From Acetatifactor muris (GTDB taxonomy: Bacteria > Bacillota > Clostridia > Lachnospirales > Lachnospiraceae), in the NCBI GenBank assembly GCA_023663635.1, contig JAMPHD010000001.1, forward strand, positions 390,383 through 454,382: a DNA stretch of 64,000 nucleotides, written 5' to 3'. The position numbers and the translations under genes were made by a program. This document shows positions 29,101-48,048 of the stretch, one piece after another. The notes beneath the pieces are model-generated. The model worked only from the letters and a program-made list of their open reading frames with translations, was not told the origin of the DNA and did no database searches. Positions within the stretch are counted from its first letter, which is position 1. Each line of letters opens with the position of its first letter.

Positions 29101-29673
29101 ATTGGTATTTTGGAGTTCGGTTTCTACTTCTTTGAGCTCGTTTCCTACATCATTCCAGGCATCTTTTGCGTCTTTTAACTTCTCTTTGTGTTCTTCAAGG
29201 GTTACATCTATTGCGTCATGTAACTTGTAAATTCCAAAGGTAAGCGCACCGATAGCCGCAACAACGGCTGTTGCCAATCCGACAGGATTTGTGGTCATCC
29301 ACGTCCACATGGCTTTGGTTGTGTTTTTGATAGATATACCTAAGCCTTTAAATGCTGTACCGAGTCCGAGAGTCGTACTTGTTGAGGTAGCTTGAGAGGC
29401 GGATAATGCTGCTGTAGACAAAGCGGTTTCGATTTGTTCTGTGTTCAATGTAGTTGTTTGAAGAACCTGTCTTGCTTGTGTTTCAGAAAATACCCCTTGA
29501 TTAATAGTAGCAATAAGTATTTCGTTAGAATATTTTTGTGTTGATTTAGATAATGCATCAATAATAACCTTATTCTTTGCTAAATTACCGTCTGGTATAT
29601 ATGAAAATTTATTAAATGTTTCATTTATAATGCTTGTTGCTTCAGATACTTTGGCGAGATCTTTTAGTTGCAT
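26119..29673 (-). CDS. tail tape measure protein, large C-terminal portion (1184 aa); the 5' third is compositionally AT-rich
   Basis: It has long coiled coils, an internal TM segment and a typical TMP C-terminus. Its position before Dit/Tal fits. GC content changes abruptly at about 28.35 kb. Confidence 0.78.
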   Translation of the reverse strand: MQLKDLAKVSEATSIINETFNKFSYIPDGNLAKNKVIIDALSKSTQKYSNEILIATINQGVFSETQARQVLQTTTLNTEQIETALSTAALSASQATSTSTTLGLGTAFKGLGISIKNTTKAMWTWMTTNPVGLATAVVAAIGALTFGIYKLHDAIDVTLEEHKEKLKDAKDAWNDVGNELKEVETELQNTNEAIKELEELPNLTWVEQEELDRLREVTKELELQKQLKQDDQLSAAEDLYKESRETFNKQFGNSIGNSSVDALKQQLSTGNISGIQLDLEDNLVDIEAMLQYLNETKEQLTDGTDIQIYESMIANLVQAKTDLIKSQGREMLSSISEYKQNILDIASVRDLTEDEQATYDYLSSVQKMIYEFYSPATWNSLEFDSIFDTKGLEKTKEELIAMAKAGELSPEVLQSFPKLNAAIRDSELIVSEGSDIFREFYDEITAIADRQLQFPAPEASFPDLFSLQNADNILTSLGKISESVDNVQNAYRVLSSAIDEYEQTGAISTDTLQSVMVLGDNWLDYLSEENGALSLNCDSLEELTRLRLEEMRVRALNNVIDNVQQIRNNADANLYLASTNYATAESFEELARTSMLSAKASLDARLASGELSQQLYDAVTAKMYGDINKINILFDNVTTGLADNFTAASSHAVESARSFSDLLDKELTVLDKKMEAGYTDFKDYIRDRLALIEDYYRQSKISADEYYSYLENHYAQELSYRDKAINAVTKRIDREINSLEKEKAAISDSWQTRIDALEEQKNLLQDANSERRRQLDLQKALYNLERAKNQRTALVYSEDGGMRYVTDEAALRDAETTVENAEYEIRISKIEKGVTELEQARDAETAAIDDMIDSLREYREQWNDITSAYEENQENLIAAQILGQEWESDILNCRLDTLSQFRDEYISIQQAMADAAWESANAQISAAREAAKGAEGNMGNASVAKNPPTYEVVDESTARTVRTFDSLSTAQEYAAKLSRNIPDTEPSYYVLNSSRYHTGLRQGPVSSHSFDEDFRLVRQVGLGNREVPAILKEGEAVATPEQISRLAAGLRQTQPIDPAAESITLSEPIITSDGHMLRPLQPGDRIWELQKAFEPLVSRILNDGEILVSNAILDGQRQMEQMTSRMHADSVNTRSIQPNVQIGDIHISCPGITDREVAEQVGVALNEKFRGFHLYAEQQSMIRR

Positions 29674-29726
29674 GATTTAACAAAAACATTTATAATATTT
29701 TCTATAATTATTAAGGAGATAATAAT

Positions 29727-30305
29727 ATGTCGCTTTTAGAAAAATGGCGTTCTATCGCATACGATTATACAAAATCTAAATCAGAAATAGATTCTTTTTG
29801 GAATCAATACTTTACAAAGGAAACACAATTTTATGAAAGGTTATTAAATATTTCAGAACATCCAATTTTAGATACGGTTGAAAATTTTGCTGTTAAATTT
29901 GATACAGATATTATAACTATGGTTGGATTTTTAGATGGAATTAATGATAGTCTTAAAATTCCAAATAATATTGAAGAAATAACGGAAAAAACAATAGTAA
30001 CATTAGATTGCAACTTAGAAGAGTTGTACAAAAATGCTATAAAATCAGATGCAAAGCACATATATACATTATCTATTTGGGATACAATTCTTCCGAATAG
30101 AAAAAGCATACCAAGACCACCAATTGAATATAAAGATAAATTGTTACAACCAACTTTAAACCAACCTAAATGTCCCACTTGTAATAGTACTAATATTAAG
30201 AAAATATCAGGCTTATCCAAAGCCGGGAGTGTGGCATTGTTTGGGATCCTTTCCCAAAAAGTAAAGCATCAGTTTAAATGCAACAACTGCGGCTATGAGT
30301 GGTAG
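29727..30305 (+). CDS. AT-rich hypothetical protein with a C-terminal CxxC...CxxC zinc ribbon (moron, opposite strand)
   Basis: This 192-aa ORF runs convergent to the TMP. It has very low GC. Its C-terminus reads CPTCNS...CNNCGYEW. Confidence 0.6.
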   Translation: MSLLEKWRSIAYDYTKSKSEIDSFWNQYFTKETQFYERLLNISEHPILDTVENFAVKFDTDIITMVGFLDGINDSLKIPNNIEEITEKTIVTLDCNLEELYKNAIKSDAKHIYTLSIWDTILPNRKSIPRPPIEYKDKLLQPTLNQPKCPTCNSTNIKKISGLSKAGSVALFGILSQKVKHQFKCNNCGYEW

Positions 30306-30310
30306 TGCCC

Positions 30311-30337
30311 GGGGCGGTCTTCCGTAAGGAGACCGCC
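30311..30337 (+). terminator. stem-loop immediately after the zinc-ribbon ORF
   Basis: The hairpin gggcggtct/agaccgccc is a 9-bp stem. No clear T tract follows. Confidence 0.35.
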
Positions 30338-30896
30338 CTGATTTAACATATGGGCTGCATATGATATATGTTTTGATTTTTACCCGTTGGCCGAAACACT
30401 GCGGCCAAGCGCATCACTGAAAATCATAAAATCGCAATGCGCACTATGCATTACCGGTAGACTGCATTATGGCTGCGGTCTGCCGGGAGGATGGGTATGT
30501 CTGTGGGGATTGCTCTCTCCGTCAGGGAGAGTGCCGTCCTGCTCGTTATCCATTGTCCGCGATACTTAGGCGTCCGTGGGTTCTCACCCGCGTTACCGTA
30601 TATCAACATGACCGGTTTTTTCTGCTTTCGCAACCGCGTCCGCAATGAGGGGACTGTGGTCCGACATGTGTTAGCCGGATGGCTCCGGTCTTACCCGAAA
30701 GTAAGAGATTTTCAAGCATTTACTCCTCCATGTACAGTTTATACTCCGCTTAAAGTGTTTGCAGAGTCTTATTAAAAACCCCATGTATCCACAGACTTGT
30801 ACGCGGCGCCGTTATGCCGTTTTCTTGTCTGTGATCGCCCGACCAAAATCCCCCGCCAAAGTGATTCCGATCATGTCACCCCGCGTTGCCGCGGGG

Positions 30897-32150
30897 TCAA
30901 GCAAAGTTTTTAACGAATTCCCGTATGCTCAACAGTCCGCTCCCTATTCCAACGGTTCCAAACAGTCCCGTCTTCTCCGTCAGCCGTTCAAGGCCGTTGC
31001 CGAGGGAGAGCAGGGCGTCAAGGAAGGTTTTCACGTCTTCGGGATCCAAGATGTTTTGCAGGATCCCGTTCCCCGCCTCCCGGAGACGGTTCAGGCGGTG
31101 CTCCACGGTGTCTGCCGCGGCGGCCATCTCCGTTTCTATGCCGCCCGCTGAGCGGGCCATGGTCTCCATGGAGTCGGTGACGGTGTCGAAGTGTTCGAGG
31201 AGGGCAGTGGAAAACCGCGCGTCTTCCTCTCTGCCGAGAAACTCCGACAGGCTGTTTTGCCGCGTGGCATCCAGTTCTCCGTAGATTTCAGAGATGTCCT
31301 GCAGCAGTTCCATGGTGGATTTCAGCCGTGTGCCGGCCTCGTCGGCGAAGAGGCTGACGCCTCCGGGGCTGTCAGCGGTACGGGTCAGTTCCGCCACGGT
31401 GCGGGAGAGTTCCCGGACGTCGGCGGTGCAGACCCCCGTGTCCTCGGAGTATCCGCGGGTCCGCAGGGAGAGTGTGTTCAGGATGTCCGCGGCCCGTGCG
31501 GCGTCTCCCGTGAGGGAGGTGAGGACCGCTCCGAGGGCTATGGTGTCCTCCGGGCTGTTGCCCGCATCCGCCATGGCATCGGCCGAGCGGGTCAGGAGCT
31601 CCAGGATTTCCGCATTGCCGAAGGGACGTGTCCTGCCCACGGCATTGATCTTGGAAAGGAGATCATCAAGGGTCCGGTCGGAAGTTTCCAAATCCATGCG
31701 GAAGGCTTTCATGACGGCGGAGAGCCCCGATACGGCATCTTCCGGGGTCATCCCGGGGGAGACGGCGGCCAGCATGGCGGAGTATTCGGTGAGTGTGGAG
31801 AGGGCATGTTGTGTCGCGGCGCCCAGTCTGCTCCACGCGGCGGCCTGTTCCAGAATGTCGGTGGTGGCGGTGCCGGTGCGGCGGGCGATGTCATCTGCGG
31901 TTTCATGAAAGGCAGCCAGTTGGCGCGCTGTCATGCGGGATGCCCTCTGCAGGGAAGTCATGGCTGTGTCGAGATCGCGGACGGCGGATAGGATATCTCC
32001 GGGGACGGTGAATGCCTTCACGAAGGCGCCGGCGCGTTTGGTGAGAAGGGAGAGAGTCCCCGCGCAGTCCGACAGAACCGCCAGGAGGGATTGGCCTTTT
32101 TTGCCCGCTTTGTCCAGATCTTTGATCAGGGTGTCGGTGGAATTGCTCAT
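30897..32150 (-). CDS. tail tape measure protein, N-terminal portion (417 aa)
   Basis: It has the alanine-rich TMP N-terminal core region (DLDKAGKKG..., LSAVMKAF..., TADVRELS...). It ends in a hydrophobic segment. Confidence 0.72.
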   Translation of the reverse strand: MSNSTDTLIKDLDKAGKKGQSLLAVLSDCAGTLSLLTKRAGAFVKAFTVPGDILSAVRDLDTAMTSLQRASRMTARQLAAFHETADDIARRTGTATTDILEQAAAWSRLGAATQHALSTLTEYSAMLAAVSPGMTPEDAVSGLSAVMKAFRMDLETSDRTLDDLLSKINAVGRTRPFGNAEILELLTRSADAMADAGNSPEDTIALGAVLTSLTGDAARAADILNTLSLRTRGYSEDTGVCTADVRELSRTVAELTRTADSPGGVSLFADEAGTRLKSTMELLQDISEIYGELDATRQNSLSEFLGREEDARFSTALLEHFDTVTDSMETMARSAGGIETEMAAAADTVEHRLNRLREAGNGILQNILDPEDVKTFLDALLSLGNGLERLTEKTGLFGTVGIGSGLLSIREFVKNFA

Positions 32151-32375
32151 GTGTCTGTGTTACCTCCTTTTCCGGATTAGGTCTCCTGATTTTCGGCATG
32201 GATCATTTCCGCCAGCCGGGAGATCAAATCTTTCTTTTTCTGCTCCTCCATGATGCCCAGAATGATTTCATAAATGGTCAATCTGATTTTCCACTGAGCC
32301 TTTTTCATTCTAAAGAATACAAACATCTGATTTTCCTCTTTTCTTTCTTCATTGATGGTTGTGGATCCGTATGGA

Positions 32376-32822
32376 TCAGTCCATTTCTTTCAATCCGCGC
32401 ATGGCCGGCTCCACAATGCTGTGAATGTATCCGTCTCCGCCGCGTGACTCATAATCGTCAAACAGATCCCAGAAGGCATCTTTTTCCAACTTGGACCATT
32501 GGACTGCATCCTTGTATTTATTGTAGTATCTCACAAGACTGTCCTTGAGTTTCTTAAGTTCCGTCTCGTTGTCCTTGCGCTGCATTTCCGCCAGAGTGGC
32601 TACAATGCCGTTGACGGTGTCGGACAGTTTGGCCAGATCCTTTTTGATGAGCAGCAGATCCCGCTCCTTCCGCCGTTTTCGCATCCATAGGGTCTCCAGC
32701 TCCAATTTATCGGAGAACCATTCCAGGATGGACAGCATGGATTTCATTCCGACCAGTATGACAAACACCGAGACAAGTACATAAGAAAAGTCGATCTTCC
32801 AAAATTCCCGTATTGCGTCCAT
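32376..32822 (-). CDS. membrane/coiled-coil lysis-accessory protein (XhlA-like?)
   Basis: It has one TM helix and a coiled coil. It is directly downstream of the holin, with its start at an internal Met that avoids overlap. Confidence 0.4.
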   Translation of the reverse strand: MDAIREFWKIDFSYVLVSVFVILVGMKSMLSILEWFSDKLELETLWMRKRRKERDLLLIKKDLAKLSDTVNGIVATLAEMQRKDNETELKKLKDSLVRYYNKYKDAVQWSKLEKDAFWDLFDDYESRGGDGYIHSIVEPAMRGLKEMD

Positions 32823-32835
32823 TTGCCGTACCGCC

Positions 32836-33141
32836 TCATTTCTTCGGGCCGATGATCTGCTCCACTGCCTGTCTGACCTTGTCATAGGAAGTCATACTCA
32901 CCAGACCTGCAGCCAGTCCCATCAGGATCAGACAGATCATGTTGTTGACCGTGAACGGAATGGCGTTCAGGCGGTAGAAGACGGCAGTACCGCCCCCGCC
33001 TATGACGAGGGCGGTGATCATTGCCGCGAGATTGTAGGGCAGATTGACTCTGTCAGTGATGAGAGTTTTAACGGCCTCCGTGACGAGACTGCTGATCGCG
33101 GAGAGAAGAGACAGCAAAATTAAAAACATGGTAGTGTTCAT
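32836..33141 (-). CDS. phage holin
   Basis: It is 101 aa with two or three TM helices and a charged C-terminus. It is immediately downstream of the endolysin. Confidence 0.7.
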   Translation of the reverse strand: MNTTMFLILLSLLSAISSLVTEAVKTLITDRVNLPYNLAAMITALVIGGGGTAVFYRLNAIPFTVNNMICLILMGLAAGLVSMTSYDKVRQAVEQIIGPKK

Positions 33142-33142
33142 A

Positions 33143-34189
33143 TCAAATCCTCCCTGTGATTCCTTTTACGATGGCATCCGCCATTTGGTCTGCCCGGTAT
33201 AAAGCCACATCGTCCCGATCGTCCACAAAGCAGCATTCGATGAGCAGTGCGGGAGATTTGGTCTTCTTTAACACGTAGAGCGAAGGGGACACCTTTACTC
33301 CGCGGTTTTTAAAGCCCAATGCCGCAATGGCATTGACGATACGTTGGGCATAGGGCTTGGCTTTGGATGTGGAGGAGTAGACATAGATTTCCGTTCCCGT
33401 GGTCCTGCCGTTGCCGCCCTTATCTTTGGCGCCGCTGTTGAAATGAATGCTGATGTCCAGATCTGCGGGCCGGGCATTGCACTTTTGGACGATCCGGCTC
33501 AGCACATTGTTTTGGCTTGTGCCGTCATTCACGGTGCAGTCATATACGGTGTGGCCCTGTGTCCTCAGTCTGTCGATGACTTTATCTTTGACAATACGGG
33601 CTTCGGTGGATTCTTTGATCAGTCCCACGGCTCCGCAGGCGATCTTGCCGTCCGGGTTGTGGCCGGCATGAATGTTAATGATCATTTGACGCTCTCCTTT
33701 CGTGCTCTGCCTGGGCTTGTCCCATGTGTCATATTGCGTCAGATCATACTTTCGGACAACGGCCATGACATTGTCAACGTATCGGATGCTTGTGGCATAT
33801 CCGTCCTGTTTGATGTTCTCCAGATAAATTTGCGGATCCGTCACACCTTTGAGATTGGCGTAATTGGAAATATTGGTAAAATCAAAATACCCGCGGACAC
33901 CGCTTTCCATATCGGGAAATCTCATCCAGTTCATTGAAGATGAGAGATAGCTGCCGTCAGCGTTCTGCTCACTCCCGATCTTGCGGTAGATCCCACAGGC
34001 GGTGGGACATCTGCCCGCCCGGTATTTCAGGCCGAAGTAGTTATGGGCATTCCGGGCAAGTTCAGATGTGCCGCTTGCGGATTCCAATATGGCCTGCGCC
34101 ACAATGGGGGAGCAGATACTGATCCCGTATTGGGGCGCGTATTTTTGTATGTATGGTACGATCTGTTCTATAAATCCCATGTCAGACAC
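33143..34189 (-). CDS. bifunctional endolysin: N-terminal glucosaminidase plus C-terminal N-acetylmuramoyl-L-alanine amidase (Amidase_3)
   Basis: The N-terminal domain (FIEQIVPYIQKYAPQYGI...) is glucosaminidase-like. The C-terminal part has IINIHAGHNPDG, GAVG and E...HFNS zinc-amidase motifs. Confidence 0.82.
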   Translation of the reverse strand: MSDMGFIEQIVPYIQKYAPQYGISICSPIVAQAILESASGTSELARNAHNYFGLKYRAGRCPTACGIYRKIGSEQNADGSYLSSSMNWMRFPDMESGVRGYFDFTNISNYANLKGVTDPQIYLENIKQDGYATSIRYVDNVMAVVRKYDLTQYDTWDKPRQSTKGERQMIINIHAGHNPDGKIACGAVGLIKESTEARIVKDKVIDRLRTQGHTVYDCTVNDGTSQNNVLSRIVQKCNARPADLDISIHFNSGAKDKGGNGRTTGTEIYVYSSTSKAKPYAQRIVNAIAALGFKNRGVKVSPSLYVLKKTKSPALLIECCFVDDRDDVALYRADQMADAIVKGITGRI

Positions 34190-34190
34190 C

Positions 34191-35327
34191 TCACTTTTTG
34201 CGCAGAGTATTTGATTTGCTATTTAGTTTTCGTAGTTTGGCGACACATACGTTCAATTTGTCGCACACATAATCCAACTCCTCCGGGGTCTCCTTCCCGC
34301 TGAAGGTCATGCGGACGCAACTGTGGATATCGTCCGGATCCATGCTGATGGCCGTCAGAGCAGTGGAGGCGGAGAGCGCCCCGCTGTTGCAAGCGGATCC
34401 GGTGGAGACCTGAATGCCGTTTGCGTCCAACAGATACATCAAAGATTCTCCCTCCACGCCCCGAAAGCATATATACAGATGCCGCGGCAGACGGTGACTG
34501 GCGCTGCCGACCAAGTAACTTTCGGGAATATGGTCTGCAATGTAGCGACAGACATAGTCCCGGGAGTGGGATGAGACGGAGGAATAGTCATGCTCCCTGA
34601 CGGCCCGGTCCAATGAGGCGATCCCAAGCACATTTTCGGTGCCGCCGATCAGTCCCTGCTCCTGGCTGCCGCAGATCAGCGGCTCCGGGTCAATGGCGGG
34701 CTTTTTGTAAAATACGCCGCAACCCTTCAACCCGCCCAGTTTGTGGGCGGAGAATCCGCACATATCCACATTCAGTTCCTCCACATCCAATGGGATGGAG
34801 GAAATACTGCCGGTGCAGTCCAAGTACATGATACCGTTAAAGTGATGTGTCAGATCGATGATCGCCCTCACATCCTGTATGGTTCCGATTTCGGAGCAGG
34901 CATGTTCAACCGCGACAAGGGCCTTTTCGTCTGACGCGCGCAATTGTTCCCGCAGGTTAGACAGATCTATCGATCCGTGTCGGTCCACTTTGAGCGGATA
35001 TGTCCTGTCGCGGTTTTCCACGCATTTTAAGATGGATTTGTGGGCGGTGGGAGAGTATAATATGCGACAATCGTGTCTCGCGCAATAGCCTCTGACGGCC
35101 AGAGTGTTGCTCGCTGCCCCGCCGGGGGTGAAGAAAATATCATTTGGGCAGGCATGGATAAAGCGGGCCACCGAATCCCGGCAAGATGTGATGATCTGCC
35201 GGGCCGGTTTGCCCACCGAATGGAGGGAGGAGGGATTGCCATATTGGTCCAACAGTGAGATCAGATACTGTCGGGTGGTGGGAGAGAGGGGAGTGGTGGC
35301 TGCATAATCCAGGTATATTTTTTTCAT
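34191..35327 (-). CDS. cysteine desulfurase (NifS/IscS-like, PLP-dependent class V aminotransferase)
   Basis: The MKKIYLDYAATTP N-terminus, the SAHKLGG PLP-lysine motif and a C-terminal active-site Cys region (GSACNSG) are present. Confidence 0.82.
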   Translation of the reverse strand: MKKIYLDYAATTPLSPTTRQYLISLLDQYGNPSSLHSVGKPARQIITSCRDSVARFIHACPNDIFFTPGGAASNTLAVRGYCARHDCRILYSPTAHKSILKCVENRDRTYPLKVDRHGSIDLSNLREQLRASDEKALVAVEHACSEIGTIQDVRAIIDLTHHFNGIMYLDCTGSISSIPLDVEELNVDMCGFSAHKLGGLKGCGVFYKKPAIDPEPLICGSQEQGLIGGTENVLGIASLDRAVREHDYSSVSSHSRDYVCRYIADHIPESYLVGSASHRLPRHLYICFRGVEGESLMYLLDANGIQVSTGSACNSGALSASTALTAISMDPDDIHSCVRMTFSGKETPEELDYVCDKLNVCVAKLRKLNSKSNTLRKK

Positions 35328-35358
35328 TTTGTCTTATTTCCTAAGTATGTGTCCGCGG

Positions 35359-35628
35359 TCAGGTTCCCATGATATCGTCCAATACCTTCCGGGCGCTCTC
35401 TTTGTAAAGCGCCCGGTCGGACAGATCCAGATCGGAGAGCAGATTTCTCGCCTCTTCCCCGGTGATGATATGATTATGGTAGTCTTTCAGGATCATGAAG
35501 ATTTGGTAGTGCGCGGGAGTGTCTGTCAGCACCCGCCAGGATGTGAATGCTTTGGACTTGGAGCAGCTGTCACAGGCATGATATCCCTTTCCGCACAGGA
35601 CACACCAATGATTGATCTCTCCGGGCAT
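35359..35628 (-). CDS. small zinc-binding protein (hypothetical)
   Basis: It has a CVLCGKGYHACDSC motif. It is translationally coupled between neighbouring genes. Confidence 0.4.
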   Translation of the reverse strand: MPGEINHWCVLCGKGYHACDSCSKSKAFTSWRVLTDTPAHYQIFMILKDYHNHIITGEEARNLLSDLDLSDRALYKESARKVLDDIMGT

Positions 35629-36395
35629 CAGTTGGCCACGATCACACTGAAGAGGTCGGTTCCGTCATCTTCACAGTAATCCTTCATGAAGTCGATGGAG
35701 AAACTGTGCTTGCCCGTTCCGGTCAGAGCCGTCTCGATGGATGAGGGATCGATCTTGCCTTTCTTGGCCACGATGGTACCGGCATACTTGATGTTCTCGT
35801 TGCACATGTCCTTGAAGATTGCGAAGATCTTCACGCCGACAGCCTCGGGGAAGTTCTCGGTATTGTTGACCACACGGACGGCGCCGGAGGTCTCGTACTC
35901 ATACTCCACATAGATCTTGCCGGTCACATCGGTGGGCACGGTGATCTCCCGGTCTGCGATGGTGAACTCGGACTCACTTGCCATTGCGCCCAAGGTAAAC
36001 TTTTGGGCGAGCTGACCGCTCTCAAGCTTATAGATGTACTTCACGTCATTCAGCGGTTTGTGGGACAGGGTGATTCTGCCGTCTTCCACGGTGAGAATTT
36101 CCTCCACGGGCACCCGGATCTTGTGATCCTCGTCCGCGATCTCCTTGTCCGTGCCATACTGCAGCGCCAACAGATCCATGCTGAACAGAGAGTTGGTGGC
36201 GGAGAAAGTGCCGGTCTTGGCCCTAAACAGTTTCGTGATCAATGCGCCCTGCGCGTTGGTGATCTCCTCGCCCTCGGCTGCAGTCTGCAGACTGGGCTCC
36301 TCCAGGTTGGTCAGACGGCCGATCACGGATCCGTCGGACAGGTCAGTGAAGATAAGGCTGCGCACCCTATCAAGAATCAGTTCGTTTACGTTCAT
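35628..36395 (-). CDS. phage structural protein (putative major tail/tube protein)
   Basis: It is 255 aa, acidic and beta-rich. Position and size are consistent with a sipho tail tube. The assignment is tentative. Confidence 0.4.
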   Translation of the reverse strand: MNVNELILDRVRSLIFTDLSDGSVIGRLTNLEEPSLQTAAEGEEITNAQGALITKLFRAKTGTFSATNSLFSMDLLALQYGTDKEIADEDHKIRVPVEEILTVEDGRITLSHKPLNDVKYIYKLESGQLAQKFTLGAMASESEFTIADREITVPTDVTGKIYVEYEYETSGAVRVVNNTENFPEAVGVKIFAIFKDMCNENIKYAGTIVAKKGKIDPSSIETALTGTGKHSFSIDFMKDYCEDDGTDLFSVIVAN

Positions 36396-36439
36396 AGTTT
36401 CTTCTCCTTTTTGTGATGTATTTGATAAAGAACCCGGGG

Positions 36440-37201
36440 TTATTTGAGTTCTCCCATCCAGTTTAAAGCGTCTTTGTCGATCCGGTTAAGGTTCACGCCA
36501 AAGCCCGAGTAGCCGCTCTGTAGGAGCAGGGTGGCGTTTTTGATCCGTTCAATCCTCTGTACGCTGTCCATAAAGGGATATATTTTCATGTCAAACACGG
36601 TGTGATGATCCTGCTTGAAACCCTCCGAGTTGACCATGGCGGATATCAGCGGCAGCAGATAAGAATGCGGTGTCATGCCCTTGCTTTGTTCATAGTTCTC
36701 TCTTGCCTCCTCTATTAGGATTCGGCGGGTGGCCTCATTGCCGGGGACTTCTTCATTGCGCCTGAGCCGGTGCATCTTACGGACGGCGGTTACAAGGGCA
36801 TTGTAAACGTAGCGGTCGATCCGCGGTTGCCTGTCCGGTCCGGATTGCGGCGCAAGAATGACTTCTTTGAGGTTCTCGTCATAGGTCGGTTGCATTTGAG
36901 ACAGATCCATGGAGTCACCCAGAAGGATGGCGGTGGACTTTCGGGGCAGTTGAGCGGACAGGAGAGAGGTAAACAGCTCAAAATCCGATATCCGAGTGTA
37001 ATCGATTCCCATGTCGTCTAATTGCCATTTCAGATCCGCGCCCACGGAGCACATCATCCGGACCATGTGAAAATATTCCGTCTCGCCGTACTCGCATATC
37101 TCGCGCAGAGTGGGCTGTCTGATGGAGATATGTTCATTGATTCGCAGATCGTCACCGCGATACAGTTTCAGTTCGTCGATTTGGTTTTCCGATCCCATCA
37201 T
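36440..37201 (-). CDS. hypothetical phage protein
   Basis: Choosing an internal Met start (MMGSENQ...) gives tight coupling to the HU-like gene stop. Confidence 0.4.
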   Translation of the reverse strand: MMGSENQIDELKLYRGDDLRINEHISIRQPTLREICEYGETEYFHMVRMMCSVGADLKWQLDDMGIDYTRISDFELFTSLLSAQLPRKSTAILLGDSMDLSQMQPTYDENLKEVILAPQSGPDRQPRIDRYVYNALVTAVRKMHRLRRNEEVPGNEATRRILIEEARENYEQSKGMTPHSYLLPLISAMVNSEGFKQDHHTVFDMKIYPFMDSVQRIERIKNATLLLQSGYSGFGVNLNRIDKDALNWMGELK

Positions 37202-37202
37202 T

Positions 37203-37532
37203 TTAACCTGCCTTTCCCGAGTGTCTGTTTTCAAAGAGTTTGCGGTTGATCTTTTCACTAAAGTATTTGGACAGACAGATTTTAGTCTTCACATGTGCCG
37301 GACAGTCGATATCCCGGAACATGCCCTTGGAATAGTTCTTTCGCGCCACATAGTTCCTTCGAATCTGTATGCCGCTAAACAGCTTAATGCTGACGTCCTC
37401 CGTCGGAGTGACTGAAACAAGACGGTCAAAAATGATTTTTTCCGCGGTCCGAAACATTTGTTGGACGATTGCCACATCCATATTTCCGCTTTCCGCGATC
37501 TGTCTGATCAAAGTATCCTGTGTGATGTTCAA
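37203..37532 (-). CDS. HU/IHF-like nucleoid DNA-binding protein (phage-encoded, diverged)
   Basis: The N-terminus (MNITQDTLIRQIAESGNMD...) and length match the HU fold pattern. Synteny with yonO recalls SPbeta yonN. Confidence 0.55.
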   Translation of the reverse strand: MNITQDTLIRQIAESGNMDVAIVQQMFRTAEKIIFDRLVSVTPTEDVSIKLFSGIQIRRNYVARKNYSKGMFRDIDCPAHVKTKICLSKYFSEKINRKLFENRHSGKAG

Positions 37533-37658: not shown

Positions 37659-40307
37659 TCATGCATGGCGCTGTCTTTGTTTTTTGGCTCTCTCATATTC
37701 TCTGTCATGAATCTGCCTGCAGTGGGGGCATCTGCGGGTGCGCCTGTTGGAGAGATCCACCTCAAACCACTCTCCGCAGTCCTCGCATTGCACGAATTTG
37801 GTCTGCGGAATACTGATGTTTCGTGTCAGATTGTTCACAATATATTGTCCGTAGCAGAACCAGAGCAACTGTTTATAACGCTTTTGTCTGCCGTACAGAT
37901 ATTCTACCAACATATCCGTGACCGTTTCATCGGAGTATCCGAAACTGTGGAATTGTTCCCTCATCTGCCCGGCAATATAGTGCAGATTATCGATGTATTC
38001 ATCTTTGCGGTTGATCATGTACCGATACTGTCTGTTCAGGCTGTCGTACAGGTCGGCAACTTCCCTGCTGCAGACCATGGTCTTGTTACACATCATATTT
38101 CGATGATCGAGCGGGGCAAGATCCATGGAGCGGGTGTTGATGGGACTGTTGGGAATCCGGTCATAGATTCTGTTGACCAGACTGCCGTTTCGTGCCTGTA
38201 ACTGCGAATCTTCCTTATCTTTGGCGTATGCAAAGAATGCGGGGAGTTTCGCCTGAGTGTACTTGGCGATCCGTTCCCTGACTTCCCGGGGAAATTCCGG
38301 CTTATACAGGGTCTTGGCGAAGTCGATCACAAAGTTGTTTTGGCAGCACAGTTGCCGAACGCAGTCCAAAGCCTCCCGTTTTTCTTTTTCCGAACCGGAT
38401 AGGAAGACTTCATGATTCCAAATCTTGGAGATGCTGTTGCTGTAGGTGCCGATATTGCCTCCCGTGAAGGCCGCATATAATCCGTCATAGATTGTCTGAG
38501 GCGTCAGCGGGGTCGGCTCTGACTTGCGCATATTGTAATAGAGGGGGACAATGCCTTTCATATTGCGCTCCGCAACGCGGATAAAATCTTCATCCGCTAC
38601 CACCAGGGCTTTATCGCCATCCACATCGTACATTAAGATCTTGCTGATCAGATCATGGGTGCTCGCGTAGAGACCGTCCGTAGTGAACCATTCTCCGATC
38701 CGGTCGGCCCGTTCGCCGTATTCCACACAGGCCGCATTGATGCGTATGGCATGTTCCTTATACAGATGCGGACTCCGCAGACAGTCCAACCGGGGATGCC
38801 TTCTAAACATCCGGCAAAACACCTCATGATCCGCCAACAGGCCTTTCGGTTGTGGCGCGTGTCCGAACCAGTGCTCACAGGCGGCATAGAAATCGGGTAG
38901 CAGAAAGGCGTATTTGCCGTTTATTTCCAATCGGCCGCTGCGATATTTTTGCACAAGGCTGTTTTTGATGTCCCGTATCATGTCCTTGGTATAGGTGTCG
39001 TTGAGCAGAGCGGGGTACATTTTTACGGATTTTTGAAAGGCCGTCATGTCGGTGTTGTAGGGAGTGATGCCCAGTATTTCAATCATGGTCTCGCGGGAAT
39101 TGCATATATTGCGGATGCGTTCGGACGATCTTCGGGTGATCAGATCGACTTCCTCATCCGTTACGTCAGTGAGCGTCTGCAGCATCTGGTAATTGATCTT
39201 GGCATTCCTGCCCCTCTGTTCTTCTCTGTTGCATATTCCCGCGCGACAATGGTATTTTTTGAAACAGTCCTTGTACTCATCCCAGGAATCGTAGTACCGG
39301 TACATCTTAAACTGACTTTTGGTAAAAATAATGCGGATGTCTTCCTCTATAATATTGTGCTCTCTGCCGTACAGGTCCGTGATGACGGGAGAGCAGTCGT
39401 TGACCGTCACAAACTTTCTAAAGTCGAATACGCCCAACAACCCCTTGATCCAAGGGGCGCGGAACATGAAATTTTTGTCGGAGACGTAGGGGAGCATCAT
39501 GCCGGCTCCGTCAGTGTGGGGAATCGGTATGTAGTCGGATTTTCTTGTGATGGAATAATCCGTTTCGTCCACGAAGTCAAAGGTGCCATATACATTCGTC
39601 TCAAAATCATCCACCACGATGGTCCGGTCGATATCAAAATCTCTCCACTCGGTGGTGGCAGAGTTGGTCAGAGCCATATAGGCCAGATGCTTATTGACAT
39701 TATTGCCGCCCCGTGAGTTGATCCTGTCGATGGTGAGTCCGCACATGACGGAGGATTCGATCCGATTCCACACGGTCTCTTTGATAAAGACAGCCTTCTT
39801 CTTGCGGATCTGCCCGGCTGAGGAGGTAAAGTACCGATATCGCTCACCCGCATACATAAAGCCGTGGAAGGCAATATCCTTAAAAATGTCAAAGTAGTAC
39901 ACCTGAACGATCATCAGCGCGTCCGTCAGTTCATCCCGGCCGATACCGATGGCGCGGCTGAGATAGGAGTCGAAGACGGAGACGATATCGGTATCTTTCA
40001 GACTGCCGTCTCGGACGCTGCGGATATGGTCCCGCCCGGCAGTCCGCTCATTTTGTGACACTTTGTGGGACAGAAGGGTCAACATTTTCTCTTTGGTTTC
40101 CCTGATCTTAGCCTTCTTATGCGTAGTAAGGTTCTCCCAATGTCTGCGGGCAGCAGGTGACATTTCCGTTTGGACTTTGGTACGGCTGTCCCTGAGTTGG
40201 AGAAGTTCGCAGCGATACCTGCGGATCCGGTCATGCAGATTCTGCTCGCGGTTACTGTAAAAGTGTGCCGTATCTATGGAATAGACATAATATAATTGGT
40301 CCTGCAT
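37659..40307 (-). CDS. YonO-like single-subunit DNA-dependent RNA polymerase homolog
   Basis: It is 882 aa. It contains the DVDGD (DxDGD) catalytic metal-binding motif of double-psi beta-barrel RNAPs and a C-terminal CxxC...CxxC zinc ribbon. It lies adjacent to an HU-like gene, as in SPbeta yonO-yonN. Confidence 0.6.
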   Translation of the reverse strand: MQDQLYYVYSIDTAHFYSNREQNLHDRIRRYRCELLQLRDSRTKVQTEMSPAARRHWENLTTHKKAKIRETKEKMLTLLSHKVSQNERTAGRDHIRSVRDGSLKDTDIVSVFDSYLSRAIGIGRDELTDALMIVQVYYFDIFKDIAFHGFMYAGERYRYFTSSAGQIRKKKAVFIKETVWNRIESSVMCGLTIDRINSRGGNNVNKHLAYMALTNSATTEWRDFDIDRTIVVDDFETNVYGTFDFVDETDYSITRKSDYIPIPHTDGAGMMLPYVSDKNFMFRAPWIKGLLGVFDFRKFVTVNDCSPVITDLYGREHNIIEEDIRIIFTKSQFKMYRYYDSWDEYKDCFKKYHCRAGICNREEQRGRNAKINYQMLQTLTDVTDEEVDLITRRSSERIRNICNSRETMIEILGITPYNTDMTAFQKSVKMYPALLNDTYTKDMIRDIKNSLVQKYRSGRLEINGKYAFLLPDFYAACEHWFGHAPQPKGLLADHEVFCRMFRRHPRLDCLRSPHLYKEHAIRINAACVEYGERADRIGEWFTTDGLYASTHDLISKILMYDVDGDKALVVADEDFIRVAERNMKGIVPLYYNMRKSEPTPLTPQTIYDGLYAAFTGGNIGTYSNSISKIWNHEVFLSGSEKEKREALDCVRQLCCQNNFVIDFAKTLYKPEFPREVRERIAKYTQAKLPAFFAYAKDKEDSQLQARNGSLVNRIYDRIPNSPINTRSMDLAPLDHRNMMCNKTMVCSREVADLYDSLNRQYRYMINRKDEYIDNLHYIAGQMREQFHSFGYSDETVTDMLVEYLYGRQKRYKQLLWFCYGQYIVNNLTRNISIPQTKFVQCEDCGEWFEVDLSNRRTRRCPHCRQIHDREYERAKKQRQRHA

Positions 40308-40317: not shown

Positions 40318-40836
40318 CTATGCCAAAATGTCAGAGTGGCGCCTGTTGCGGCGGGGCTTTATGTCGAGCCATACTTCCCAGTAGCCGTCACAATAGCGGG
40401 TCCGCAGGGTGTCGGGATAGAATTTGGCCAGCTCCATGATCTGAAAAATGTAATAGCAGTAATCTTTCCGACCTGCACGGATATTGTCCGACACATCGCT
40501 TATGTAGGCGCAATATCGCTGCCAGTTGGTGGGACCGCTGTATTGGCCTCTTGTCTCCTCATTCCAGAGGCCGGATTCCTTGGAGTAATGACCGGTCGGA
40601 CGGTTTATATGATCCGGGCAGGGGGTGATGAACAGTTTTCTCAGATAAAATTCTTTCTGCCATTTCTCATCGGTGAGAGCAGCGGAGGGCCTCCCGTCAG
40701 TATTGGATATCAGTTTCCTGCGTTTCAGTTCTTCCAATCCCATGGCCCTGTACCGCTGTTCGGCCCGGGCGATCGTCTCATCGGTATGCGGGCATACCGG
40801 CGCAAAATATGGAGTTGTCTGTGTGATTGTTGTCAT
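40318..40836 (-). CDS. hypothetical protein (Cys/Tyr-rich)
   Basis: An AAGGAGGA ribosome-binding site precedes the ATG at 40836. It is the first gene of the minus-strand operon downstream of the SOS-box region. Confidence 0.45.
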   Translation of the reverse strand: MTTITQTTPYFAPVCPHTDETIARAEQRYRAMGLEELKRRKLISNTDGRPSAALTDEKWQKEFYLRKLFITPCPDHINRPTGHYSKESGLWNEETRGQYSGPTNWQRYCAYISDVSDNIRAGRKDYCYYIFQIMELAKFYPDTLRTRYCDGYWEVWLDIKPRRNRRHSDILA

Positions 40837-40928
40837 GTGTCTCAAATCCTCCTTAGTTGGTTGAATCAGGTGGCGGTATGATATATTTCTCCGTTTTGCC
40901 GGGAACACATCTCAAAAAATCCAATTTT

Positions 40929-40980
40929 AGAACAAATGTTCGAAAATTTTATTGACAAATCAGAACGCATGTTCTATACT
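40929..40980 (+). promoter_or_regulatory. divergent promoter region with two LexA/Cheo boxes (AGAACAAATGTTCG, AGAACGCATGTTCT). The second lies in the spacer of TTGACA-17-TATACT.
   Basis: Direct read. The GAAC-N4-GTTC pattern is the Gram-positive SOS box consensus. Confidence 0.6.
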
Positions 40981-41027: not shown

Positions 41028-41591
41028 TTGGAAATGGAACAAATGCTAAATGCTTATTATGCGGATAATGCGTCCAAACTGCATAGGACAGTGGATCGGA
41101 TCCTGCAAAAGTATGGCGGTTTATCAGGTAAGGACAGAGATGATTTCTATTCACTTGCCAATGAGGTGTTCGCGGAGGCCATAAAACGTTATGACCGGTC
41201 GCAGACCTTTGACGGTTTTCTGTATATCTGTCTGAATAATCGCATTAAGACGGAGATAACGCGAAGAAATCGAGAGAAACGTAAGGTGGACAGAGTATGT
41301 ATTTCCATGGATATGCCGATCGGTGACGATGAAGATTCCACTTTGGCAGATGTGATCACGGATGATTTTAACTTGGAGGAAACGGTGTTGGCCGGATCAA
41401 ATGAAGGGTACGGCAAACGACTGTCAGCGTATCTCGCCAGATTGTCAGAGTTGCAGAGGAGGGTGTTGAGACTGGATGCCGCAGGCTATCTGCCCCATGA
41501 GATCAGGGAGAAACTGCAGATTACGGAGAGACAGTATGCGGATTGCAACGCAGCAATCCATTCCTACAGAAATATATCACTGTTGCTCTGA
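41028..41591 (+). CDS. group-5 (TcdR/UviA/BotR-like) alternative sigma-70 family factor
   Basis: It is 187 aa with region 2 (YD...FxxY) and a region 4 HTH (LSELQRRVLRLDAAGYLPHEIREKLQITERQ). It sits directly downstream of the LexA-box promoter. Confidence 0.72.
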   Translation: MEMEQMLNAYYADNASKLHRTVDRILQKYGGLSGKDRDDFYSLANEVFAEAIKRYDRSQTFDGFLYICLNNRIKTEITRRNREKRKVDRVCISMDMPIGDDEDSTLADVITDDFNLEETVLAGSNEGYGKRLSAYLARLSELQRRVLRLDAAGYLPHEIREKLQITERQYADCNAAIHSYRNISLLL

Positions 41592-41610: not shown

Positions 41611-42678
41611 ATGGCAAAACCGCGCAGACAGACTTATACGATGGATATGTATCTCCATAAAGTGTCGGATGCCGACATTCGCAATGACGCGGATGTGCAG
41701 AGGCAATTTATCTGGAGCAGGGAGCAGATCGATGAACTGGTGATGACGGTCCTTGCGGATGACTATATTCCGCCGATCGTCCTCGGAGAGGAGGACAGTT
41801 CCCAATTGTGGATCGTGGATGGCGGACAGCGCACGATGGCTTTGGCCAAATTTCGTTATGGGAATCATAAGATCATTCCAGGGAAGAAGAACTCACGAAT
41901 TTCCTATAAGAAGAAAGAACGGGATGATTCAGGCAAGATCGTATGGGAGGACGCCGTCTGCGATATTCGCAATAAGACTTATGACAAACTGCCGGAGGAG
42001 CTGAGAAAGCAGTTTAATGAATATCAGATAGAGACGGTCATTCATGAACACTGTGACAACCATAGGATCTCCCAACTGATCAAAAGATATAACAATCACA
42101 CTGCAATGAACACGAATCAGAAGGCATTTACCTATATCGATCGTTTTGCCAGGGATATCCGCGAGATCTCGGAGAGCGGTTTCTTTGTGGAATACAGTGA
42201 GTATTCCGAGAAGGAGAAGAGCAAGGGGGTGGTGGAACGCGTGATTGTGGAGACCGTGATGTGTACCAATCACTTGAACGATTGGAAGAAACAGACCGGA
42301 GCGATCTGCATATATTTGAACCGGAATGCCGCAAAGGAGGAGTTTACAGAGCTGGCAGAACGGATTCATCGACTGGAACGGGTGATCACGGAGGATATCA
42401 AAAGTATATTTAACAGCAGGGATTCCTTTTTGTTCCTGACTTTGTTTGAACGATTTACAAGGTCGGGAATGGAGGATGTGCTGTTTGCGCAATTCCTGAG
42501 AGAATTTAAAAACCACCTCAGACAGACGAGGATGGATGGTGTGCTATTTGACGAGACAGGCAAGGAGAAAGGGAGTAAGAACAAGGCGGTCATTCTTGCC
42601 AAGTTGGACATATTGGAAAGGATGATGTGGGATTTTTTGCGGTCGGAGGAGGAATCCGATAAAAATAAAATGCGATAA
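41611..42678 (+). CDS. DUF262 (ParB/Srx-like nuclease superfamily) domain protein
   Basis: It has the LWIVDGGQRTMAL (DGxxR) signature. An AAAGGAGGG ribosome-binding site is present. It is co-oriented 20 bp after the sigma gene. No DUF1524/HNH-like C-terminal domain is apparent. Confidence 0.62.
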   Translation: MAKPRRQTYTMDMYLHKVSDADIRNDADVQRQFIWSREQIDELVMTVLADDYIPPIVLGEEDSSQLWIVDGGQRTMALAKFRYGNHKIIPGKKNSRISYKKKERDDSGKIVWEDAVCDIRNKTYDKLPEELRKQFNEYQIETVIHEHCDNHRISQLIKRYNNHTAMNTNQKAFTYIDRFARDIREISESGFFVEYSEYSEKEKSKGVVERVIVETVMCTNHLNDWKKQTGAICIYLNRNAAKEEFTELAERIHRLERVITEDIKSIFNSRDSFLFLTLFERFTRSGMEDVLFAQFLREFKNHLRQTRMDGVLFDETGKEKGSKNKAVILAKLDILERMMWDFLRSEEESDKNKMR

Positions 42679-45676: not shown

Positions 45677-46519
45677 ATGACAATAAAAGAAGTTGAGGCG
45701 CAGACAGGATTAACACGCTCCAACATACGTTTTTATGAAAAAGAAAAATTGATAGAACCGTCACGAAATGAACAAAACGGATACAGGGATTATTCTGAAA
45801 AAGACATTGAAAATATTAGAAAAATCGCTTATTTGCGTACATTGCAGATTTCCGTTGAGGATATTCGTAATATCATATCCGGTAAAGTGTCATTGACAGA
45901 AATTATAGAGAAACAAGTGGCAACGATACAGACACAAACAGAGGATTTAAATAAAGCGAAAATCATGTGTGAAAGACTGCTTGAATCCGGAAATGTCAGC
46001 TTTGATGAATTACAGGTGGAAAAATATGTGGAAGATTTGGAAACTTATTGGAAAGATAATAAACTTGTCTTCAAACCGGATTCGGTTAGTTTTCTGTATA
46101 TATGGGGCAGTCTTATTACATGGGCGGTCATTACATCATTATGTTTAGTGATCGGAGTAGCATCATACGCGAAGTTACCGGCAGAAATTCCTGTTCAATG
46201 GAATAATGGAATAGTAACTTCGGTTGCAGATAAAAAAATTATATTTGTATATCCGCTGGTTTGTATCTGTATCCGTATTTTGTTAAGACCGTTTATCTAT
46301 GTGAGATTTTTAATGAACTGTCTCTATGGAGAGCTTGTAACAGAATATTTATCAAACTGGTTATGTTTTATCGCGCTGTCAATAGAAGTGTTTTCTATAT
46401 TATTTGTATATGGATTGATAAAGAGTATAGTCGCTGTTTTGCTTGCAGATACTGTCGTATTTATCGGGATATTAATTGCGGGAATTATTAAATCAAATCA
46501 CAATTTTGCAAAGACGTAA
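45677..46519 (+). CDS. MerR-family regulator fused to a C-terminal multi-TM domain
   Basis: The N-terminal HTH is MTIKEVEAQTGLTRSNIRFYEKEKLI. The C-terminal half is hydrophobic. The gene is AT-rich. Confidence 0.7.
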   Translation: MTIKEVEAQTGLTRSNIRFYEKEKLIEPSRNEQNGYRDYSEKDIENIRKIAYLRTLQISVEDIRNIISGKVSLTEIIEKQVATIQTQTEDLNKAKIMCERLLESGNVSFDELQVEKYVEDLETYWKDNKLVFKPDSVSFLYIWGSLITWAVITSLCLVIGVASYAKLPAEIPVQWNNGIVTSVADKKIIFVYPLVCICIRILLRPFIYVRFLMNCLYGELVTEYLSNWLCFIALSIEVFSILFVYGLIKSIVAVLLADTVVFIGILIAGIIKSNHNFAKT

Positions 46520-46719
46520 TACACTATGCGGCAATAAAGTGACCAAAATGTAACCGGTAGTTTTGTTTTCGAGCGGGAATCTCACTTACAAAACGGGACT
46601 CTCTCCTTGTTATTCACCCAACCGTCATTGGTGTACAAGTCTGAACTGTATAATGCACAAACATTGTATTGACGAAATGTATTGTGGATAATATAATAAT
46701 ATAAGGAAGGAGTGATTTT

Positions 46720-46995
46720 ATGGCAACAACTAATATAACGATGCGGATAGATACAGGGGTAAAAGCACAGTTACAAGAACTGATGTCGGAGCTTGGATTA
46801 GATATGACAACCTTTTTTACTATGGCGGCAAAACAGGCAATCAGGGAACAGAGAATACCGTTTGAGATTTCAAGAGATATTCCTAATGCAGAAACAATTG
46901 ATGCTATAAAAGAGGTAAAAATGATGAAACAGAATCCTTCTATTGGTAAATCTTATACGGACGTTGACAAAATGATGGAGGAATTATTGTTATGA
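46720..46995 (+). CDS. dinJ: type II antitoxin, RelB/DinJ family
   Basis: The 91-aa ribbon-helix-helix-like N-terminus (NITMRIDTGVKAQLQE) is followed by yafQ with a 4-nt overlap. Confidence 0.78.
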   Translation: MATTNITMRIDTGVKAQLQELMSELGLDMTTFFTMAAKQAIREQRIPFEISRDIPNAETIDAIKEVKMMKQNPSIGKSYTDVDKMMEELLL

Positions 46996-47267
46996 TTTAT
47001 ACCGTAAGGCCAACTTCCAGATTTCAAAAGGATTTAAAACGCATACAAAAAAGAGGATATGATATATCACTTTTAACAGATGTTATTAAGAAACTGGCTA
47101 ATGGAGAACAATTACCGGAGAAGAATAGAGACCATTTGCTTGGCGGAGATTATACTGACTGCAGGGAGTGTCATATTACACCTGATTGGCTGTTGATTTA
47201 TGAAATTAACAATGGGGAATTGTTACTATATCTGACAAGGACAGGAACGCATAGCGATTTATTTTAA
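46992..47267 (+). CDS. yafQ: type II toxin mRNA interferase, YafQ/RelE family
   Basis: It has the RelE/YafQ fold signature (...DYTDCRECHITPDWLLIYEI...) and overlaps the antitoxin stop. Confidence 0.78.
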   Translation: MIYTVRPTSRFQKDLKRIQKRGYDISLLTDVIKKLANGEQLPEKNRDHLLGGDYTDCRECHITPDWLLIYEINNGELLLYLTRTGTHSDLF

Positions 47268-47565
47268 AATAGCCATAAAGCATCAAGAAATGGGAATGCT
47301 TATGTAGAGGATAAATCAGCAGTGATAAGGGTAAATGAAATCTTTGATGGTGCCCTCTAAAATGTCTTTCAGCGCATCCCGGATATAAAAAGAATAATGT
47401 TTATACAAATAAACTTTTCACTTCAGAAAACATTTTCTAATCACGGATTTATATTGTATAGTTGTTCCCTATAAAACATAATATTACAAAAAGCGATATA
47501 GTAATTGCGAAGGGGCCGGTTGACATCGTAAATAAATTGATATACGAAAGGAAGAAGGTGAGAAT

Positions 47566-47838
47566 ATGGCTACTGTACAGACACAAATCAGAATAGAAGA
47601 AGATGTCAAAAAACAGGCTGTTGAGTAATTTAATCAACTTGGAATTGATATGTCCGGTGCAGTTAATATGTTTTTAAGGCAGGCTATTATGCGTGGTGGG
47701 TTTCCTTTTAGTGTAGAAATCCCTAAATATACCCAGGAAGTACTAGAAACTATGGAGGAGGCAAAACAAATTAGCAGAGATCCTAATACAAAGCGATATG
47801 GCAGTTTTGCGGAAACGCTGGAGGATATTGATTCATGA
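47566..47838 (+). pseudogene. second dinJ/relB antitoxin copy disrupted by an in-frame TAA after codon 20
   Basis: MATVQTQIRIEEDVKKQAVE is followed by a stop. It then continues in frame as FNQLGIDMSGAVNMFLRQAI..., homologous to the intact DinJ. Confidence 0.6.
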
Positions 47839-47919
47839 AATATGAATTAGTCCTTACAGGAAGATTTAAAAGAGGATTAAAACTTGCTAAGAAACGAGGA
47901 TTAAATAGATATATCTGAT
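47836..47919 (+). pseudogene. truncated yafQ/relE remnant (27 codons)
   Basis: MKYELVLTGRFKRGLKLAKKRGLNRYI is followed by a stop. It resembles a toxin N-terminus and directly follows the dinJ pseudogene. Confidence 0.4.
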
Positions 47920-47928
47920 AGAAGAAAA

Positions 47929-47962
47929 AGGAAACCCCTACATTCCGAGGTTTCCTTTTTTT
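47929..47962. terminator. bidirectional rho-independent terminator (hairpin flanked by an A run and a T run)
   Basis: The 8-bp stem aggaaacc / ggtttcct is followed by ttttttt on the plus strand and by a T run on the minus strand. Confidence 0.6.
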
Positions 47963-47964
47963 AC

Positions 47965-48048
47965 TGCGGAAGATGGGACTTGAACCCACACGGTATTGCT
48001 ACCACAAGATCCTTAGTCTTGCTCGTCTGCCAGTTCCGACACTTCCGC
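47965..48048 (-). tRNA. tRNA-Leu (anticodon UAG) with a long variable arm
   Basis: Reverse-complement cloverleaf: a 7-bp acceptor stem GCGGAAG/CTTCCGC, an anticodon loop CTTAGGA, a long variable arm, and a T arm GGTTCAAGTCC. Confidence 0.82.

Follow-up and report, generated by a model that had tools for sequence, protein, structure and literature searches.

Sigma factor genes under direct LexA repression are already known from mobile elements, namely sigN on the Bacillus subtilis plasmid pBS32 and uviA on the Clostridium perfringens plasmid pIP404, and LexA is likewise known as a direct repressor of the phage GIL01. SigN (ZpdN) is encoded on an element with a phage-like region; its SigA promoter is directly repressed by LexA and derepressed by mitomycin C, and SigN then activates a regulon carried by the element and brings about cell death (Burton et al. 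2019, PMC6751061). The sigN LexA operator has been validated by electrophoretic mobility shift assay (PMC6751061). In GIL01, which infects Bacillus thuringiensis, host LexA represses the lytic programme through several SOS boxes on a key promoter (PMC4551915, PMC6182141). Here we describe a 64-kb stretch of contig JAMPHD010000001.1 (the window, by which we mean the whole stretch of DNA analysed), from a Lachnospiraceae metagenome-assembled genome (MAG) labelled Clostridium sp. or Acetatifactor. It holds a phage-derived element with a sigma factor gene that is preceded by two LexA (Cheo) boxes, and the best overall explanation, which we consider likely to be correct, is a LexA-controlled sigma switch with a cascade downstream of it. 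New with respect to the systems above are the sigma family, the constant association of this sigma with a DUF262 gene, a two-operator design in which one box lies inside the promoter spacer, the link to an operon encoding a YonO-type RNA polymerase, and the breadth of the arrangement across Lachnospiraceae; full-text literature searches found no description of this switch. Coordinates of all features are collected in Table 1.

An initial annotation of the window, made from its letters, had proposed that both boxes fit GAAC-N4-GTTC and had placed box 2 inside the 17-bp spacer of a near-consensus sigma-gene promoter. Both statements were borne out. The half-sites of the two boxes are perfect, the promoter was recovered in a promoter scan, and the 12-mer core of box 2 falls entirely within the spacer. 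Relative to the predicted transcript start, near 40987, box 2 is centred at about −18 and box 1, which lies 10 nt upstream of the −35 hexamer, at about −52. The two boxes are 33 bp apart within a single 197-bp intergenic region between divergent operons, and the central tetranucleotides of both obey the RNRY rule that is part of the Bacillus LexA consensus (CGAACRNRYGTTYC), as defined for DinR/LexA of B. subtilis. From this layout, box 2 is the predicted core operator, within the promoter spacer, and box 1 the predicted upstream auxiliary operator.

Judged within the window, such boxes might be chance palindromes in an A/T-rich intergenic region. The 64 kb contain 3 matches to GAAC-N4-GTTC, where shuffled sequence predicts 0.90, and a count of 3 is reached in 8 of 100 shuffles of the window; by our own estimate from the shuffle density, a box pair such as this one is expected ~6e-4 times per window. 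The third perfect match, GAACGTAAGTTC at 8737-8748, lies 44 nt upstream of scpA and follows a metallophosphoesterase gene. We rejected it as an SOS site, as the count falls within chance expectation, and the 'chromosome partitioning' SOS cluster described by Cornish et al. is a different one, consisting of CodV/XerD.

For the pair upstream of sigma, conservation settles the question. One genome per species was scanned, yielding 213 relatives of the sigma factor, and the best 80 were fetched; nearly all of these are labelled Lachnospiraceae or genera within it, and their sigma identity is 56–68%. A viral set consisted of 29 IMG/VR loci with sigma homologues. The module searched for was TTGACA-N5-[G/A]AAC-N4-GTTC-TATA[C/A]T, allowing no more than 1 mismatch over the 18 specified bases and a distance of up to 2.5 kb upstream of the gene. 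It was present upstream of the sigma orthologue in 72/80 genome loci, with AAAC for GAAC as the commonest mismatch, and in 17/29 viral loci, the carriers among which include 108–185 kb contigs whose sigma homologue has only 28% identity. Exact boxes are similarly concentrated. Within 200 bp upstream of sigma, at least one was found in 50/80 loci and two, spaced 32–34 bp, in 20/80; overall there are 70 in 16 kb of upstream DNA versus 27 in the other 869 kb of the loci, corresponding to 4.36 and 0.031 per kb, respectively (~140-fold). Once the modules are removed, just 11 exact boxes are left in ~950 kb of related loci, and these were not accepted as SOS sites, being mostly intragenic and in no case upstream of a recognisable SOS gene. 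An alignment of 73 of the promoters shows hexamers and half-sites that are almost invariant, while N5 and N4 vary; N4 nonetheless satisfies RNRY in 69/73 copies of box 2 and in 55/62 copies of box 1. That the same arrangement is kept in 72/80 related genomes we regard as decisive against chance, and the boxes are best read as LexA-type operators. With both position and sequence conserved and a 140-fold enrichment, the probability that they arose by chance is vanishingly small.

Box 1 had been assigned in the initial annotation to the yonO-side operon, which it was said to face. On that assignment LexA would repress both divergent operons directly, and in six loci (L015, L019, L026, L044, L060 and L077) box 1 indeed lies ~7 nt from the promoter-like motif of the leftward operon, where LexA could block both promoters. 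Across all loci, however, the distance from box 1 to this motif ranges from 7 to >150 nt (38 nt in the window), whereas the distance to the sigma −35 hexamer is fixed: box 1 is present, with at most 1 mismatch, in 62/73 aligned promoters, and in 60 of these 62 it ends 9–11 nt before the −35, the mode being 10, as in the window. The other 11/73 promoters, L020, L041, L055 and L074 among them, are without box 1 yet have the divergent operon. We therefore consider it improbable that box 1 is an operator of the leftward operon. Its fixed spacing assigns it to the sigma promoter and not to the yonO side.

The protein that binds these operators is very probably host LexA, as indicated by comparisons well beyond the element. 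The exact promoter TTGACA-N5-GAAC-N4-GTTC-TATAMT occurs in at least 120 viral contigs (L115–L234), mostly unrelated 30–60 kb gut phages, in which many different genes lie downstream and only 4 have a second upstream box. A motif common to unrelated phages argues for a host protein as the binder, and the box-in-spacer promoter appears to be a generic SOS-responsive design of Firmicute phages. Lachnospiraceae lexA loci, which were found by searching with a consensus LexA of Firmicutes, encode canonical LexA proteins (PF01726 and PF00717), and the recognition-helix region of these is close to that of B. subtilis LexA. Two of the three distinct types of lexA promoter have 3–4 boxes (at most 1 mismatch) in a 260-bp lexA/LysM intergenic region, compared with 3–4 boxes in total in the remaining 6.4 kb of those loci. 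In L239–L241, at about 2750–3000, a cluster of 3–5 Cheo-like boxes separates the lexA genes of Lachnospiraceae MAGs from a divergent small LysM-domain gene, the same arrangement as at lexA/yneA of B. subtilis. The core of the sigN operator of pBS32, GAACAAATGTTC, is identical to the 12-mer core of window box 1, and gut Firmicutes are known to use the Cheo motif (PMC3998124).

The palindromes could instead be operators of an element-encoded or other non-LexA repressor whose site resembles a Cheo box. The LexA of this genome lies outside the sequence searched, and phages can encode LexA-like DNA-binding domains, as does contig L121 with its 83-aa protein. Such a repressor would nevertheless have to be reconciled with half-sites that stay invariant although the proteins have diverged to 28–68% identity, whereas phage-specific operators co-evolve with their repressors. 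It would also have to account for the same promoter in unrelated phage groups for the chromosomal lexA promoters of the family, which carry the same boxes, and for the N4 of the module boxes, which follows the LexA RNRY rule. No repressor gene is kept beside the module in the 80 genome and 29 viral loci, where only sigma, DUF262 and the yonO block recur. We consider a non-LexA binder very improbable. Occupancy of the sigma promoter by LexA, with derepression in the SOS response, is by contrast highly probable from the conservation of the module, its presence in unrelated phages, the lexA promoters and the RNRY fit, and direct SOS control, which the initial annotation had predicted, is the best reading of the locus.

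The sigma factor itself is, by sequence and structural model, a divergent SigH-like, two-domain member of the sigma-70 family with regions 2 and 4. Its start codon was set by alignment of homologues that all begin MEQ..YYADNA, and homologues number 1801. No region-4 match was obtained with Pfam. The nearest solved relative in a profile search of structures is SigH (3mzy), and in NCBIfam the SigH and sigma70-ECF families come nearest, both below their cut-offs. An AlphaFold model (mean predicted local distance difference test score 68.7) consists of helical domains at residues 2–86 and 126–177 with a flexible or disordered linker. The best 50 Foldseek matches in the PDB are all sigma factors, although E values under 0.001 are limited to the first of them, B. 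subtilis SigH (E 5.6e-4).

These relationships do not agree with the initial description of the protein as TcdR/UviA-like. BLASTP against the UviA homologue of pSM101B gave E 4.8, and the Pfam matches differ, UviA matching Sigma70_r4 and HTH_16 and the window sigma Sigma70_r2. No C. perfringens plasmid was matched by sigma in tblastn at E up to 0.1, and the plasmid matches obtained were SigH genes, not uviA. UviA is placed in group V of the TcdR group, whose members neighbour toxin or bacteriocin and holin genes, whereas the SigH-like sigma of the window adjoins the DUF262 gene and the divergent yonO operon; a holin and an endolysin lie 7–8 kb away, inside the late block. The UviA/BCN5 system of C. 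perfringens (pIP404, pBCNF5603, pSM101B), in which the promoter of a sigma gene inducible by ultraviolet light and by mitomycin carries a Cheo box, is analogous in function only. The uviA promoter on pSM101B carries a single box, cGAACATATGTTCg, just after the −10 (PMC4459074), and UviA turns on killing and release genes, that is, a soluble bacteriocin and the UviB holin, not a phage-type late operon.

SigN is the closest functional analogue of the window sigma. A profile comparison of the two proteins was weak and partial (71% probability, E 3.7e-5, 53 columns around a PIGDDE linker). The sigN promoter has one box, outside the spacer of a consensus promoter, whereas the window has two, one of them within the spacer. 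SigN also has an autoregulatory promoter, of which no counterpart was found for the window sigma, and its regulon consists of replication and nucleotide genes, with no DUF262 partner, in place of the YonO operon and DUF262 gene seen here. GIL01 differs further in being a 15-kb tectivirus that needs a co-repressor, gp7, and has no sigma factor. In colicin operons, which have double overlapping SOS boxes, host LexA also represses a lethal programme, but these are proteobacterial and the LexA motif is a different one. The 83-aa protein of the unrelated phage contig L121, noted above, is an observation in its own right. It is encoded at 4862-5113 on the minus strand and comprises the LexA N-terminal DNA-binding domain only; its gene stands under a Cheo-box promoter just upstream of putative small and large terminase genes (as judged from their sequence). 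The protein recalls gp6, a homologue of LexA with which GIL01 activates its late genes.

The DUF262 gene follows sigma in 78/80 genome loci (77 by clustering of open reading frames, ORFs) and in 28/29 viral loci, and the pairing is kept even where sigma is only 28% identical. By gene order, the DUF262 protein is an obligate and constant partner of sigma. On the opposite side of the intergenic region no SigA-like promoter was found in the leftward direction by promoter scan, and the orf172/yonO operon is instead preceded by a conserved 28-nt promoter-like motif with a weak T-rich block ~20 nt upstream of it. This motif is single-copy in the window (30.5 bits) and has 53 hits across 1.47 Mb of related loci versus 3 in shuffles; no copy was found in the SPbeta late region or upstream of the sigma gene itself in the window. 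An interpretation as a short leader ORF was discarded, since most copies read ATG-TAG. In its upstream half the motif is conserved alongside YonO proteins that are 60–68% identical as well as alongside ones that are only ~22% identical, and sigma is conserved throughout. Because this half persists despite the divergence of YonO, and because the motif precedes yonO itself, it is likelier to be a promoter recognised by sigma than one recognised by YonO, and we infer that sigma is the candidate factor acting on it. Whether sigma acts on it is in our judgement evenly balanced. A role of sigma as YonO's own specificity factor is unlikely, as SPbeta has YonO without this sigma and many of the large relatives have the sigma without an adjacent yonO.

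The leftward gene, which the initial annotation had named yonO, encodes a true homologue, with 41% identity to SPbeta YonO over 863 aa and DVDGD aligned with DNDGD (the DxDGD motif). An HU-like gene corresponding to yonN and the order of the late operon are also common to SPbeta and the element. In SPbeta, mitomycin C leads to production of YonO, and the enzyme transcribes the late genes of the prophage, those for structure and lysis (PMC5467207). The divergent yolC/yolD promoter of SPbeta has two LexA-bound Cheo boxes 30 bp apart, and deletion of lexA does not induce SPbeta (PMC8270828). Apart from gene order, similarity between SPbeta and the element was found only in YonO and the tape measure. 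SPbeta is 134 kb with head genes, whereas the element is ~25 kb without detected head genes, and at the place where the element has its sigma gene SPbeta has the Xre-like yonR, divergent from yonP-yonO. SPbeta is not a model for the sigma switch, since its yonP–yonR interval contains no Cheo box and it lacks both the leftward motif and a homologue of the window sigma. For the late genes it remains the relevant comparison, and by analogy with it YonO is somewhat favoured as the polymerase that reads the late genes of the element. Enterocloster phage CB473P3 was set aside as a model, its YonO being 23% identical and its annotation uninformative.

Taken together, these features suggest the following sequence of events. 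In undamaged cells the sigma gene would be kept silent by LexA, a dimer on the spacer box excluding RNA polymerase from the sigma promoter; LexA on the upstream box, three helical turns away and over an A/T-rich UP-element zone, would probably stabilise repression. DNA damage would activate RecA and cause LexA to cleave itself, whereupon the sigma promoter would fire. Sigma could then steer the host core polymerase to the 28-nt motif and so switch on the leftward operon with the YonO-type polymerase, and YonO might in turn read the tail and lysis genes, in the way that the SPbeta enzyme reads the late genes there. In the window the cascade would drive a ~25 kb chromosomal element without detectable head genes, leading to tail-like particles and lysis, and in the relatives it would constitute the lytic switch of 108–185 kb phages.

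A number of observations weigh against this account. In eight of the 80 genome loci the 2.5 kb upstream of sigma do not contain the module; one of the eight is a truncated locus, and three carry variants of it, namely a near-copy differing at 2 positions in L030 and a box shifted by 4 nt in L032 and L056. In the register-shifted loci (L032, L056 and L103) the box is still inside the spacer, which is 17 bp long in L032 and L056. The third type of lexA promoter (L235–L238) has only a degenerate box, AAACATTTGTTT, adjoining its −10. The lexA promoters compared belong to other Lachnospiraceae MAGs, the lexA and SOS genes of this genome being outside the sequence searched, in which tblastn with the Escherichia coli proteins found neither lexA nor recA. 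Further along the cascade, the link from sigma to the leftward motif is drawn from position and conservation only, the large relatives often have yonO at a distance from the sigma gene, and in SPbeta YonO is present although this sigma is missing and the equivalent site has no box. The most inclusive version of the model, in which LexA is the sole repressor of a sigma-to-YonO cascade, the element is a headless, non-contractile SOS tailocin found across Lachnospiraceae, and sigma-DUF262 is the lysis trigger of 100–180 kb SPbeta-like phages, is rather unlikely to hold in all its parts at once.

Lachnospiraceae are major gut commensals, and the induction of their prophages and phage-derived elements is little understood. 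The predicted LexA-operated sigma promoter spans at least 72 species and many large viral contigs, and fluoroquinolones, mitomycin and inflammation would be expected to switch on this whole family of elements directly, without a phage repressor. It also offers a handle on what activates yonO and which promoters lie upstream of it, an open point in YonO biology. Cultured carriers are available in Lachnospiraceae bacterium 10-1 (L016), Acetatifactor muris DSM 23669 (L054) and Roseburia sp. 1XD42-69 (L005), and the box-in-spacer promoter could serve as a compact, portable SOS-responsive part for Firmicutes.

With host genes on both sides, ScpA/ScpB to the left and CAAX protease, TetR, MerR, tRNA-Leu, a transporter and kinases to the right, the element measures ~25 kb. 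Besides the genes in Table 1, its late block has smaller ones. Homologues of the first leftward gene product (172 aa) occur in 8–9 loci, the HU-like gene lies downstream of yonO in 30 loci, and the 1184-aa protein has homologues with 27–28% identity in viral loci L098 and L105. Terminase, portal, capsid and integrase families all went undetected in library scans of the element, even with E relaxed to 1. Around 10 of its proteins are without any match, and no sheath or tube protein was firmly identified. No att site was found, in that no direct repeats of at least 13 nt link the edge of the island to the tRNA-Leu side.

This gene content fits a tailocin or a remnant. The operators could be real and the window copy still an inert prophage remnant, its switch a fossil: the element is ~25 kb, the head, packaging and integration functions just listed were not detected, and the relatives by sequence that have the same switch are phage-sized contigs of 108–185 kb. 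All 24 leftward ORFs picked are, however, open and tightly packed on one strand, and the boxes and hexamers are perfect. A short gene order, comprising yonO, the HU-like gene, the phrog_4051 gene, and those for the virion protein, the aminotransferase and the endolysin, moreover recurs in other species at 40–80% protein identity, which implies purifying selection, and is found on a 21.5-kb IMG/VR provirus as well. Given this recurrence, the small form is not a one-off wreck, and we consider it quite unlikely that the switch in the window is a fossil. The tailocin or bacteriocin-release lifestyle suggested in the initial annotation is plausible only: the presence of tail and lysis genes and the failure to find head, packaging or integration genes speak for it, while the 108–185 kb phages among the relatives speak against it, and a tailocin-like output is possible but on balance doubtful. 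PBSX of B. subtilis is a chromosomally fixed, SOS-inducible, phage-derived particle (a tailocin) whose late genes need the sigma-like Xpf. Its control lies with an Xre repressor of its own instead of with LexA boxes on the sigma gene; it has retained genes for head and packaging, and it lacks a YonO polymerase.

Table 1. Positions of the predicted operators, promoters and genes in the window.
Feature	Position	Strand	Sequence or basis
LexA (Cheo) box 1	40929-40942		AGAACAAATGTTCG; perfect half-sites; N4 = AAAT
LexA (Cheo) box 2	40962-40975		AGAACGCATGTTCT; perfect half-sites; N4 = GCAT
Predicted SigA-type promoter of sigma-DUF262 operon	40952-40980	+	TTGACA, 17 bp, TATACT; 11/12 matches in promoter scan
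−35 hexamer	40952-40957	+	TTGACA
Spacer	40958-40974	+	17 bp
−10 hexamer	40975-40980	+	TATACT
Sigma factor gene (185 aa)	41034-41591	+	Pfam Sigma70_r2, 28.8 bits (cut-off 24); phrog_351 (sigma factor)
DUF262/GmrSD_N (ParB-like) gene	41611-42678	+	PF03235, E 1.3e-12; co-oriented with sigma
Conserved 28-nt promoter-like motif	40871-40898	−	CAAAACGGAGAAATATATCATACCGCCA; upstream of orf172/yonO operon
First gene of leftward operon (172 aa)	40318-40836	−	AAGGAGG ribosome-binding site; no family match
YonO-type single-subunit RNA polymerase (882 aa)	37659-40307	−	PF05183; phrog_8308, E 9e-246
HU-like DNA-binding protein gene, yonN counterpart	37203-37532	−	Weak Pfam Bac_DNA_binding match
Late block, all one strand	17765-37258	−	Pfam/PHROG matches
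phrog_4051 protein	in late block	−	
Virion structural protein	35628-36395	−	Late block
Class-V aminotransferase-like (cysteine desulfurase-like) gene	34191-35327	−	Between virion protein and endolysin
Endolysin	33143-34189	−	
Holin-like gene	32836-33141	−	
Tape-measure-like gene	30897-32150	−	
1184-aa protein	26119-29673	−	No Pfam or PHROG match
Tail protein with DUF5048	20760-22520	−	

Two minor observations concern the element and its surroundings. The class-V aminotransferase gene, an odd cargo, occupies the same place in eight related elements (L020, L041, L049, L055, L056, L074, L088 and L089). A scan of the window with Rfam found tRNA only, and a stretch of low GC content (0.35) at 46001-48000, located between the element and host genes, adjoins tRNA-Leu (47965-48048, minus strand). 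It lies just past small regulator and membrane genes (TetR, MerR-like, CAAX protease) at 43–46.5 kb and may be a separate islet or an old integration site.

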